Shown: in pieces, positions 12,753 through 56,795 of the stretch | Layout: each line of letters opens with the position of its first letter | Position numbering within the stretch: the first letter of the stretch is position 1 | From: Negaprion brevirostris | Taxonomy: Eukaryota | Reading direction: 5' to 3' | Length of the DNA stretch: 62,782 nt | NCBI GenBank assembly: GCA_030324005.1 | Contig: JARDVH010000099.1 | Span: 63,157,418 to 63,220,199, forward strand | Notes under the pieces: generated by a model | The model's database searches: none | Seen by the model: the letters and a program-made list of their open reading frames with translations, nothing else | What the model was told of the DNA's origin: nothing | Position numbers and translations under genes: made by a program

Positions 12753-13612
12753 TGTTATGACCAGGTTAGGAAGTGTGAGCTGACTCCTCTCTTTGCCCCA
12801 CTCCGGGATTGGTTATGGCAGAGTTTGAATTTTAAAAGGGTACTATTGGCAATTCAATAAAGAAATACTTAACTGTGTGCAGCTGGGTGTAAGAAATAAG
12901 CCAGCCAGATTCTTTAAGTTAACAGGAGTTAGTTTTATTGCTGAAACTGACTCTAAAGATGCAGAAATTAACAAAAGGCTTCTAAATGCATGAAGGTATC
13001 CAACTTCCAGCCAATACAAAAACACACAACTCCCCAAGCATCCACAAAAAAAGATCGAATTTTACCAAGTATCAGAACTTTAAAAATTGTTCGATGGCTG
13101 TTCACAGTTAAAGAGCCACTTTCCACCATAGCTGCTGGTATTGGGATTTCTCATTGGAGCAGCCAGTTGTGGCCAGTTGATTCTCTTATCTCTTAGGGAT
13201 AGTTATGTTAATTTGGAATCCTCCTATGAGGACTCTCAGTTTGCAGCAATGAGGTCTTCTGGTGGGTTTTCAAGTCACAAACAGCTCAGCTTTGGTGAAA
13301 GGAATTTCAGAAGAAAGATAGATAGGTGAGGCTCTTCTTGCCCTTTCTTATCTCCGAGGCAGTCTCTCTTCCTGTTAGTTCAAATCCAGTGTCTCTTTTA
13401 CACCCGAGAACTGGGTGATGTGATCTCTATCTGGTTTCAATCTGAGTTCGTCTTAGCCATTGGCAGAGATCTCAGAACAAATTCATCGTCATAAAACAGC
13501 TCTTATCCTTCACAAAGGCAAAATAGAAATTACTACAGGTCAGTGTCCTTTGTGCAACAAAAGTATGTATATGTTCTCCTGATGACATTATCAATTACTA
13601 TTCTGTATAACA
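12753..13612 (-). mobile_element. Solo LTR (860 bp) inserted into a CR1 fragment
   Basis: Termini TGTTAT...ATAACA; AATAAA on the minus strand at ~12934; CR1-like host (from ~12490) resumes as aatcccttcagaattt. No clean TSD. Confidence 0.65.
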
Positions 13613-52146: not shown

Positions 52147-52170
52147 GTCGCAGCAGGTTTGGGCTGAGGG
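52147..52170 (+). CDS. Candidate 24-nt microexon (phase 1-1, xRSRFGLRG)
   Basis: tttttccccag acceptor, G|GTGAGT donor, frame-preserving and phase-compatible with 56055. Confidence 0.45.
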
Positions 52171-53704
52171 GTGAGTGAATACAGCCTCACTGTGAAAAAG
52201 ATTGGCATGTGGCAACCCAGAATCATGTGCATCATGGTCAAATGCAACATGCTGCTTTTCTTACATTACTATGACAACACTAGCATTGAGACAACTTCTC
52301 CCATTTTCACCTACTCGGCATTTCTATTTTGCTCAAGGTTCTTACAACAGCCGGGAAATTCTGAATTTGTGTCAATTGGAGGGCAGTTTCATGCACTCAA
52401 CATNNNNNNNNNNGACAGTACTTTAAAAATATAAAGAAAAGCTCTCACGCCCATGTTCACAGGAAAGACTACTGGACATTGAGAATCTTCTTTAAAAATC
52501 AAATCTTTTTGCTCCACATACCCTTTCTGGATAACAAAGATTGACTTTAGACACTCCATCATGCATCAGCCAAAGACATACCCAACAGAAGAGAAGCATG
52601 GCCTCTAACTGGCGGCTGCTTGTTCCAAGTGGTAAATCAACTATCCTCTAATAAATCCTCTATAGAGTTAATAATTGGACCCTTGTCATGTGGACAGAAT
52701 TACATGAAACATAAAGCCTTGTACTGATACAACTTAGGATACTCAGGAAATATATACGGTGTCAAAATGCCATTCTCCCCCTTCAAATTCTCAGCATGTT
52801 GAAATCAAAACCCCAAATGAACGATTTCAGGTTATAAAAATCTCTCTAAAATTGTGGATATTGGAGTCCTGTTACCTTTGCATACCACTTTGTTTCTCTT
52901 TTCATATGTGACTCCTGGTTTTCACTGGAAGGAACACACGATCTGCTGTTTTTTCCTGAGTGCCCAAAAGTCCCCAACAAATTTAGGTATTACACGGGCA
53001 GTCACCGAGTCCATTTCTTCTGCATTAAGACGCCATCAATAGGACCAGCTCATCACAAAGGCCGCAGACTGTGTTATCAATGTAAAACCTCTCATCCTTT
53101 GTTAGCAGCTCGCGATTTCCTCCAACAAACTAAACGTTTTTAAGTTCCCATCGCCTACCCTGTACCTCTCTTGTCTATGATTTACAACGTTATCAATTTC
53201 TTTAATTCTATCACAGTACACAAGATACTAAAAATGAACTTCATTCAGAAAATTTGCTCTGGAATATTATTAGAAATGTCACAGATTTTAGTTGTTTTTA
53301 TCTTGGAAATTCAATTGAAATTCCAGTGTGTTACAGGATCCATAAATTGTGTTGCAAGTGCTTTGTTAATTTAACACATGGTTTTTCATATTTCTTTGAT
53401 CCCAGTCATCTTCAGGATGTTGGTTCTCTGTCTGGTCCAATTCCAGGAGCCTCTGAAAAGTGAAAATCTGGCAAAATCACTTGCAGTTAAGTTTAATGAC
53501 TAATATACAGTTTGGCTTTGGAATTATTACAACTCATTCATTTCTTTACCTATTTAATAAATTTGTTTGGCTGTTTTACAGAATTTACAGCAGAGGAATA
53601 GACCACTCAGACCTATGTTCTATGTTCAAGTTTATGCTCCACATCAGCCTCCTCTCATCCCACTTCATCGGCATAAGCTTCTTATTCCTTTCTATTTCCT
53701 TATT

Positions 53705-55615
53705 TACCTCTTCTTCTTGGATTGTTCCTCGTGAGTCGAGGATGACTTATTTCCACACATTTTAAAAATTAGTTCTCAGGTGAATGAGGAGTCCAAAGCG
53801 GCCTAGTTTCTGTTTGGGACAGATGGTGGTTGGAGGAGTGGGTGGGGTGCCTGGGGTGCCACACACTCCTTTCACCGTTGATCCTGAAACTCAAGGTGTT
53901 ACACTTCTTCCTGGATGCTTTTCCTCCACTTCTGGAGTCATGGGCCAGGGATTCCCAGGTGTTGAGGCAGATGTTGCACATTTTCCAAGGAGACTTTGAG
54001 GGTGTCCTTGAAACGTTTCCTCTGCCCTCCAGGGGCTCATTAGCCATGTCAAAGCTCAGAGTACAGCACTTGTTTTGGGAGGCATGCAGACAGTGTGGCC
54101 CAACCAGCAGAGCTGATTGAGTATGGTCAATGCTTTGATGCTAGGGATGATGGCCTGAGCAAGAACACTGATGTTGTGTGTATCTATCCCACCAATAGGT
54201 TTGCAGGATTTACAGAGGCAGTGTTAGTGGTACTTCTCCAGGATATTGAGGTGCCTGCTTTACATAGTCACATCTCTGAGCCATAAAGGAGGATGGGTAT
54301 CATTATTGCTGTGAAGACTATGAGCTTGGTACTGAGTCTTAGGTCCTCATCTTCAAACACTCTCTACCTCAGGCAACACAAGGCTGTGTTGGAACACCAA
54401 GGATGACATTGGTGTTGAAGCTAGTTGTTGATGACAAGGTATGGAAAGTGGTCCACATTGTCCAAGGTCTCGCTGTGGATTTTGATAATTGGGAGGCAGC
54501 ACTGCGTGTCGGGGGCAGGAGTAGGTTAGTAGAGGATTTTTTTGTCTTGTGGATGTCTGGTTCAAGGCCCGTGCTCTTGTACAGCTTGGTAAAGGTTCTG
54601 ATGATGGCTTGGAGTTCAGCCTCCGAGTGAACACAGGCTCAAGTGTCCTGTAGTTCAAAGGCAGAGGATAGAACATTGAACATTACAGCGCAGAACAGGC
54701 CCTTCGGCCCACAATGTTGTGCCGACCAGTTAAAAAGCAATGATCCTCTAATCTAAACCAAACCCTCTCCATCCCAAACTAGGCGCATTTACAACTGCAG
54801 CAGGCAGGGCATTCCAATCCCTCACCACCCTCAGTAAAGAACCTACCCCTGACATCCGTCCTATATCTACCACCCCTTAATTTAGAGCTATGCCCCCNNN
54901 NNNNNNNNNNNNNNNNNNNNNNNNNNNNNNNNNNNNNNNNNNNNNNNNNNNNNNNNNNNNNNNNNNNNNNNNNNNNNNNNNNNNNNNNNNNNNNNNNTCT
55001 TGCCTCCCAGAGAATCCTAGGGTAAATCCCGTCCGGCCCAGGGGACTTGTGGATGGAGTAACCTTGGACCTGGAGTAACCTTGGAGTTTGAACAGATTCT
55101 CATTTGTTCTGTAACTTAAATCCACTCCAGTGGGGAGCTTGCTGAGGGCAAAATGGAGCATAGCAATAAGGAAGATTAAAAAGGGCATTGGTGCGAATGA
55201 CACAGCCTTGCTTGACCCCGGTTCGAACGAGAATTGGGTGTGTGGCTCAGGATCATGGTTTGCATGTCACTGTGGAACAGGTGGAACATGGTGACAAACT
55301 TTTGGGGGCACACAAAACGGAGGTTGACAGTGTAAAAGGCATTCGTGCTGTCAAAGAATGCCACATAAAAGCTGTTCTTTGCACTTCTCCTGTAGTTTCC
55401 ATACAGTGAAGACTATGTCCATTTTGCCCCTTAGTGAGCCAAATCGGCATTGGGACTCAGGGAGGAGCTCTTCAGCCAAAGGCAGAAGGTGATTAAGGAG
55501 ATTTCTTGTGGCCGACAGTAGGGCAATTCCCCTGTAGTTACTGCAGTCAGATATGTCACCTTTCTTGAAGGCAGTTATGATGACGTTGTCTATATGATCT
55601 CCTAGCCTCTTCCCC
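53705..55615 (-). mobile_element. Decayed RTE-clade LINE with nested CR1 3' end (~54662 to the gap at 54898)
   Basis: AFFDSTNAFYTVN and GVKQGCV motifs; short (AAG)n tail. Confidence 0.85.
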
Positions 55616-56054
55616 TCCTTCCAGATAAGGGAAATGAGATCACATATTTATCTAGCTGCCCACTAAATGCATATCTGCTGTTGCCTCAACTACTCTTGTG
55701 TGAAAGTTGTTCAAAATCATGAGGGGACTGTTTTTGCTCATAAAAAGGATCAAGAATGAGAGGGCACAGATTTAAGGTGATTTGCAAAAGAAGCAAATGT
55801 GATGTAAAAAATTTTTTNNNNNNNNNNNNNNNNNNNNNNNNNNNNNNNNNNNNNNNNNNNNNNNNNNNNNNNNNNNNNNNNNNNNNNNNNNNNNNNNNNN
55901 NNNNNNNNNNNNNNNNNGTCTTCCCAAATATGTTCATCTAGTTCCATTTCAATACAATGTAACACAAATCCTTGTGCCAGCTCTGAATATTTTGTATTTT
56001 CTCAACGTTAACGCCCAATAAAAATAAGGCTTTGTGTCTTTCTTCATTTTGCAG

Positions 56055-56111
56055 GTGCCACAGAAGTTGAATACGCTGAAATCACAGTATTTAAAAAACC
56101 CCAAAACAGAG
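56055..56111 (+). CDS. ITIM-encoding exon (GATEVEYAEITVFKKPQNR), probable inhibitory immune receptor
   Basis: Strong acceptor tctttcttcattttgcag; VEYAEI (56066-56083) fits (S/I/V/L)xYxx(I/V/L); 57 nt phase 1-1 if GAG|GCATGT is the donor, otherwise stop at 56117-56119. Confidence 0.65.
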
Positions 56112-56744
56112 GCATGTAAATATTAATAATATTTGTGCATTTCTGTGCAAAACTGTGTGAATTTGTTGATGACAAGGTATTTCTTAACTGTTAATTTCAC
56201 TCGCGGAAGTGGCAGTTTAAAACTAAGAATTTCAGAGATTCACCACCCTCTGTGAAAATGAATTCCTACGGATCTTGTTTTTAAATGATCAACCTTTTAT
56301 CTCTTACCTATGTCCCCTTGTTTGAGACTCTTCCATAGTGAAATGATTTGCATCATCTACCCTCTCAAACCCCTCAGGATCTTATAAGTTTGAATAAGAG
56401 CGCACCTCAGCCCTTTAAAGTCCAAGGAGCACAGACTCAAATTATTTAGTCAGTCCTGAGAGGGCAAGTCTGTCATCTGGGGAATTAACCTGTCGAATCT
56501 TCTTTGGGCTGCATCCAATTTTACTATTTCATCTTGTAGGTAATTCACAGGATCCCCTGAAAGAGAAAACAAGTATATGGACATATCGAATGAATGTTAT
56601 TGAGCAATACTTTCGCTATTGAAGTCTCAGTACAATGAAAAACAATATGTTTGACTTTCTGTGGGCAATAATACCAAGGAACTATTTTCTGGAACTCTGC
56701 TAATGTAAAACAGTGTTTTATTCCTGTCATTTCCTCTCTTACAG

Positions 56745-56795
56745 CAGCTGACACAACAGATCCAAACGCGGAAGTGAATAAACCCACAAAAATTG
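56745..56795 (+). CDS. 51-nt exon (AADTTDPNAEVNKPTKIG), in frame with the ITIM exon
   Basis: Branch-like ctaat at ~56700, long pyrimidine tract, acag|cag acceptor, G|GTAGGT donor, phase 1-1. Confidence 0.6.

Follow-up and report, generated by a model that had tools for sequence, protein, structure and literature searches.

Putative ITIM-bearing receptor tail exons, probably misplaced by the assembly, in a CAMKMT intron of Negaprion brevirostris

Introduction

CD72-type genes contain several small ITIM exons ahead of the transmembrane (TM) exon, and small exons with tyrosine motifs are found in the SIT1-, LST1- and PAG-like adaptors. In the tails of salmonid FCRL-like proteins, which we take to be LITR-like, an ITIM unit alternates with a second tyrosine-motif unit. 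According to excerpts of PMC5664058, the multi-exon spliced tail of PECAM-1 recruits SHP-2, and an excerpt of PMC12151841 gives the ITIM consensus as (S/I/V/L)xYxx(I/V/L). In an excerpt of a 2014 survey, no FCRL or LRC homologs are recorded in shark genomes (PMC4016189); database names and the genome analyzed here now give many shark FCRL- and LRC-like receptors.

Here, a 62,782-nucleotide stretch of the Negaprion brevirostris assembly GCA_030324005.1 (C99:63157418-63220199, hereafter the window) was analyzed together with 200 kb taken on each side. A first-pass annotation of the window had assigned three small exons to the cytoplasmic part of a probable ITIM receptor and had favored a type II one.

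Results

Three small exons in a single phase

The three symmetric phase-1 exons of 24, 57 and 51 nt were present as that annotation had described them, all in phase 1-1 on the plus strand. When exons A, B and C were joined, the residues of its peptide, xRSRFGLRGATEVEYAEITVFKKPQNRAADTTDPNAEVNKPTKIG, were reproduced. The features are as follows, in window coordinates.

52147-52170, plus strand: exon A, 24 nt, phase 1-1, AG/GT, acceptor score 5.7, donor score 6.2
56055-56111, plus strand: exon B, 57 nt, phase 1-1, AG acceptor (score 9.7), GC donor
56112-56119, plus strand: alternative exits of exon B, a weak GT donor after 56115 and a read-through TAA stop at 56117-56119
56745-56795, plus strand: exon C, 51 nt, phase 1-1, AG/GT, acceptor score 7.4, donor score 2.4

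The product of exon A is short and arginine-rich, and would fit a membrane-proximal position. Exon B encodes the ITIM V-x-Y-x-x-I followed by a lysine pair, and its phase-1 reading agrees with the consensus given above. As read from the sequence, phase 1 is the only frame open throughout A, B and C. The 57-nt size of exon B depends on a non-canonical GC donor, which had gone unmentioned in the earlier annotation. Use of the GT donor 4 nt downstream, or read-through of exon B, leads to a stop 2-3 codons past B, and either exit would end the predicted protein just past the ITIM exon. Exon C also carries a second acceptor in tandem (56748), another donor 4 nt further along and, at 56777, an AATAAA.

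The tyrosine position of exon B is occupied by Asn in exon C. The likeness between the two exons had a p value of 0.012 at the DNA level and 0.35 at the protein level, and B and C were mutual joint-best non-self matches within 241 kb. From this comparison, exon C is likely a degenerate copy of exon B without its tyrosine.

The acceptors of A, B and C ranked 149, 4 and 38, respectively, among the 22,759 unmasked AG sites of the host intron. Under simulation thresholds that had been set after the exons were seen, 2.65 Mb of simulated DNA yielded five ITIM-bearing candidates and no group of three on one strand within 5 kb, and the density of single symmetric phase-1 candidates was that expected by chance (7 in 332 kb of real sequence vs 28/Mb in Markov-simulated DNA). 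A genome-wide search for the acceptor-plus-motif pattern gave 27 matches vs 8 with a reversed control; among the 27, exon B had the top acceptor (9.7; next 5.8) and the sole usable donor. The splice scorer gave an acceptor score of at least 5 to only 4 of 16 true exons and rated many true small exons poorly.

That A-C are intronic DNA which is exon-like by chance and was picked after the fact is, in our estimation, rather doubtful. The chance density of single candidates, the five ITIM-bearing simulated candidates, the GC donor of exon B, the lack of any homolog in the searches described below and the non-significant B-C protein likeness all fit such a reading, whereas the empty simulation for triples, the acceptor ranks, the one open phase common to all three exons, the B-C likeness in DNA and the register in which exon B matches known ITIM repeats speak against it. 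As predicted from DNA signals, A, B and C are probably real exons.

A CAMKMT intron as host

The window lies inside one intron of another gene.

1-62782, minus strand: host gene; the entire window is within a single 242-kb CAMKMT intron, on the strand opposite to exons A-C

The flanking minus-strand exons match consecutive stretches of human CAMKMT (PDB 4pwy): the one ~71 kb right of the window corresponds to residues 43-70, and the one ~109 kb left of it to residues 67-87. PREPL is arranged head to head with CAMKMT, and SLC3A-type exons are found further out. One SLC3A-like exon (L018:1099-1488, minus strand) is situated just upstream of the SLC3A1-like gene and possibly belongs to a tandem paralog. 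Within the window, an exon-like stretch at 13197-13325 (plus strand) carries two tyrosine motifs in phase 2; it has the wrong phase to join A-C and is probably due to chance.

The TM and lectin exons of a type II receptor had been expected to the right of the window. None was found in the 200 kb downstream, where only the CAMKMT intron, a stray RYR3 exon, the CAMKMT 5' exons, PREPL and the SLC3A-type exons are present. None of the 36 genome matches to Lectin_C (123 candidates scored) fell within C99:62.9-63.5 Mb. In a tblastn search of 463 kb around the block with 23 Ig receptors, the best E value was 0.07, while the same 23 queries matched 13 of 20 control loci at E<=1e-4. In a Pfam search that covered 143 of the 389 listed frames, none was assigned to an Ig or lectin family. 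A hydrophobicity scan of the plus strand gave 38 hydrophobic stretches, none of which passed a loose splice filter. The earlier remark that gaps could hide exons holds good: 16,156 of the 242,300 intron bases (6.7%) are N, distributed over 72 gaps, and because of these bases and the weak splice scorer, further exons could be hidden.

Exons A-C might also be the tail of a transmembrane adaptor with no folded ectodomain (SIT1/LST1/PAG-like), either misplaced or with its TM exon in a gap. This would account for the missing ectodomain with fewer hidden exons, and small tyrosine-motif exons are usual in such adaptors. On the other hand, none of the 38 hydrophobic plus-strand stretches supplies a TM exon and the block has one tyrosine motif alone, and we regard an adaptor as very unlikely.

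Misplaced exons in the assembly

Lone exons of other genes were found in this intron and in an intron of PECAM1.

L005:8550-8678, minus strand: lone RYR3 exon in the CAMKMT intron, ~38.6 kb right of the window, single-copy
L034:3939-4180, minus strand: lone DENND4-type (DENN-domain) exon in the CAMKMT intron, ~76 kb left of the window
L097:1509-1820 and L097:4402-4668 (C137), plus strand: two PDGFRA-like Ig exons, antisense in a PECAM1 intron

On C115, the stray exon is missing from the RYR gene, in which its two neighbours are present and separated by a 3019-N gap. The closest other copy of the stray DENN-domain exon in the genome is a 74% paralog. The DENND4 gene on C164 is without the stray exon, shows two gaps at that place (2185 and 1814 N) and seems to be without the next exon too. 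Both genes sit on other chromosome-scale contigs. Since the RYR3 and DENND4 genes need these exons, an assembly error is the plain reading. It is therefore clear that the assembly has wrongly placed exon-bearing pieces of two other genes in the CAMKMT intron. In the PECAM1 intron, the PDGFRA-like exons share an N-free stretch with the PECAM1 TM exon, and a PDGFRA-like exon there is single-copy.

By analogy with these neighbouring pieces, the A-C block was probably misplaced into the CAMKMT intron in the same manner. Against this, the local order is correct across the several N runs that the block spans, and the repeat flanking the gap to the right of the window looks, by eye, like one continuous element. 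According to PMC2413239, prediction of tail exons is poor, and a lone exon may reflect misassembly. Because the block is probably not at its true locus, the argument for a type II receptor that had been drawn from missing upstream TM and Ig exons is void.

Contigs of relatives across the block

Contigs from related organisms were compared with the block, and run X1, which may represent the source sample, was not counted as support. One feature of the block differs among them.

54671-55055, no strand assigned: high-copy repeat insertion and 100-N run, missing in organism C, where the flanks are contiguous

Each of runs X2-X4 has one contig with exon A; in these relatives, A>G at 52155 replaces Arg with Gly. 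Exons B and C were spanned by one X4 contig, and contigs of X3 and X4 connect 54670 directly to 55056. The exon block in organisms B and C showed roughly 94-99% identity by piece and the same local order; the interval 55765-55920 was bridged by none of the relatives' pieces listed. Because the block is kept in these contigs, it is real DNA. The relatives' contigs neither tie the exon block to CAMKMT nor untie it.

It is improbable, in our judgement, that the block truly lies in the CAMKMT intron, as an orphaned tail fragment or pseudogene or as a nested antisense gene whose other exons are in gaps. Its retention by two relatives at the above identity and order, its single copy, the 72 gaps of the intron, the tyrosine-less exon C and the non-synonymous change of exon A in relatives are consistent with such a location. 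However, this location requires that the leader, ectodomain, TM and last exon are all hidden in <7% N, no parent copy of a duplicated fragment was found, and two further lone exons of this intron are misplaced. A nested gene expressed in this shark and kept in related ones, whose product would be an ITIM tail that lacks an ectodomain and recruits SHP as a free adaptor or decoy, has only a slight chance of being correct.

Search for the owner gene

Searches for the gene to which A-C belong gave the following results. Among the matches listed (120 of 355), A, B or C was found in none of the 142 proteins compared. A homolog search with the exon B frame returned one unrelated repeat protein alone, that with the exon C frame had one candidate and no match, and the genome searches turned up no paralog of either B or C. 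Metagenome contigs, scanned for exact 20-base matches, gave no hit. In the main texts of the literature, VEYAEI and shark CAMKMT with PREPL each gave 0 hits, the scope of both searches being main texts and not the supplements of other papers, a frequent home of shark receptor sequences; four short tail motifs gave 0 hits in 10 supplement files of PMC10768021.

Candidate owners within this genome did not match on the stretches examined, which were partial and gapped, with 150 of 900 Ig_2 and 150 of 927 V-set candidates scored. PECAM1 (C137) has a TM exon and tail exons of its own, and three FCRL-like genes (C25) likewise carry tail exons other than A-C. No match to A-C came from CD22- and CEACAM-like stretches of C121, from the CD22-like genes on C110 or from the LRC-like genes (C169, C25 and C160), in which the four first tail exons seen were 28 nt long and in phase 1-2. 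A-C do not show the ITIM-ITSM tandem that the PD-1 consensus contains. An FCRL/LITR-like gene in place was rejected since no FCRL-type Ig or TM exons were found in the 200 kb upstream.

Several receptor loci came to light during these searches. Two tandem CD22/Siglec-like genes with TM and tyrosine-motif tail exons are located at C110:14.96-15.04 Mb (plus strand). Large clusters of FCRL-like and LRC-like Ig receptors occupy C25:119.7-121.6 Mb, C160:30-75 kb and C169:1.45-1.50 Mb, and lone Ig exons akin to those of the clusters are found on C99, C130, C163, C84 and C73. Shark PECAM1 (L090-L100, C137:7.72-7.82 Mb) lies tail to tail with POLG2-like exons, and its domain is 90% identical to the PECAM1 domain of Mustelus asterias. 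In its relatives, the membrane-proximal Ig domains are repeated and the tail does not resemble that of lizard PECAM-1.

Likeness to known receptor tails

In a tyrosine-anchored comparison with 442 tyrosines from 90 tails, exon B matched the ITIM repeats of salmonid FCRL-like proteins best, in the same register. Its score of 27, compared with 13.2+/-4.6 for shuffled sequences, was reached by 2 of 300 shuffles; the set consists of Ig-type proteins only, many of them redundant salmonid entries, so it is biased to FCRL and cannot rank type I over type II. The best tail match of exon C was at chance level (p=0.39). The B-C pair would look like an ITIM unit with its second unit if C has lost its tyrosine. 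The FCRL-like and PECAM1 tails of this genome consist of similar small phase-1 exons. Within a comparison that covered Ig-type proteins alone, the resemblance of the sequences points to type I tails of the FCRL/LITR/PECAM kind.

The type II assignment can now be weighed. A-C could be misplaced N-terminal cytoplasmic exons of a C-type-lectin-like inhibitory receptor (CD72/DCIR-like) with its TM and lectin exons elsewhere; the small ITIM exons recall the layout of CD72-type genes, the product of exon C ends in basic residues, and split-exon lectin domains exist on other contigs. No upstream start exon stands out, however, as the sole ATG candidate joined to A is within the polypyrimidine tract of A itself; neither a lectin nor a TM exon was found in place, and the register of exon B fits the type I FCRL-like repeats of the Ig-type comparison set. 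We consider such a receptor unlikely. Of the first-pass assignment, the part that survives is that these are likely cytoplasmic exons of an ITIM receptor, and its type II part is unsupported.

Discussion

The explanation that we favor, giving it somewhat less than an even chance, is that A-C form the cytoplasmic tail of an inhibitory type I receptor of the Ig family (FCRL/LITR/PECAM kind) and that the assembly probably misplaced them into the CAMKMT intron. We prefer it because the splice signals are strong, clustered and in the same phase, shark FCRL-like and PECAM1 tails of this genome have comparable small exons, the CAMKMT host offers no ectodomain, neighbouring exons are misplaced and the ITIM resembles those of FCRL-like proteins. 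By sequence, A-C likely encode an ITIM-like tail, which we assign to no named family.

In the true gene of such a type I receptor, A would be joined to an upstream TM exon that ends in phase 1, and would be followed by B, C and a further exon. Ligand binding would lead a Src-family kinase to phosphorylate the tyrosine of exon B, and SHP-1 or SHP-2 would be recruited to the phosphotyrosine through their SH2 domains, so that activating signals are damped. ITIM phosphorylation and SHP recruitment of this kind are described for PECAM-1 and PD-1 in excerpts of PMC5664058 and PMC12151841, respectively. Exon C would serve as a spacer without its former tyrosine, and the symmetric phase would allow A, B or C to be skipped and inhibition to be tuned.

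If this is true, one more shark ITIM receptor is added, whose tail none of the compared shark PECAM1 and FCRL-like proteins has; the addition is small. The caution about the assembly is the larger practical point: because exon-bearing pieces have been put in unrelated introns, neither gene neighbourhood nor the absence of an exon is a safe basis for argument in this genome.

Among known systems, the salmonid FCRL-like proteins are represented by P0063 ('Fc receptor-like protein 5', Oncorhynchus tshawytscha), which shares a Gly six residues before the tyrosine. They have in common with exon B the Tyr-Ala-Glu-hydrophobic core and a lysine pair at +7/+8, and their tails, as here, are built of repeated motif units. 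Fish FCRL-like tails differ in having several tyrosines and longer basic runs, whereas the present block has one tyrosine and an Asn in the second unit. This is likeness and not orthology, and the block here is without a linked ectodomain.

Lizard PECAM-1 (P0022) was the best BLAST match of exon B among the 142 proteins (E 0.27), and PECAM-1, with P0002-P0018 as shark orthologs, likewise has an ITIM unit followed by a second motif unit; the PECAM1 of this genome, in contrast, has its own tail exons, which are unlike A-C. The shark FCRL-like genes (C25:119.7-120.0 Mb; Mustelus P0059, P0064 and P0111) share a small phase-1 ITIM exon, comparable in size, followed by basic residues, but their ITIM exons are 66 nt long, lie at their own loci, have another sequence and are followed by a 32-nt phase 1-0 exon. 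In the excerpt of PMC12151841, catshark PD-1 has a tail unlike A-C with two tyrosine motifs and is linked to genes other than CAMKMT and PREPL, whereas the PD-1 ITIM of cartilaginous fish has, like that of exon B, an Ala at pY+1.
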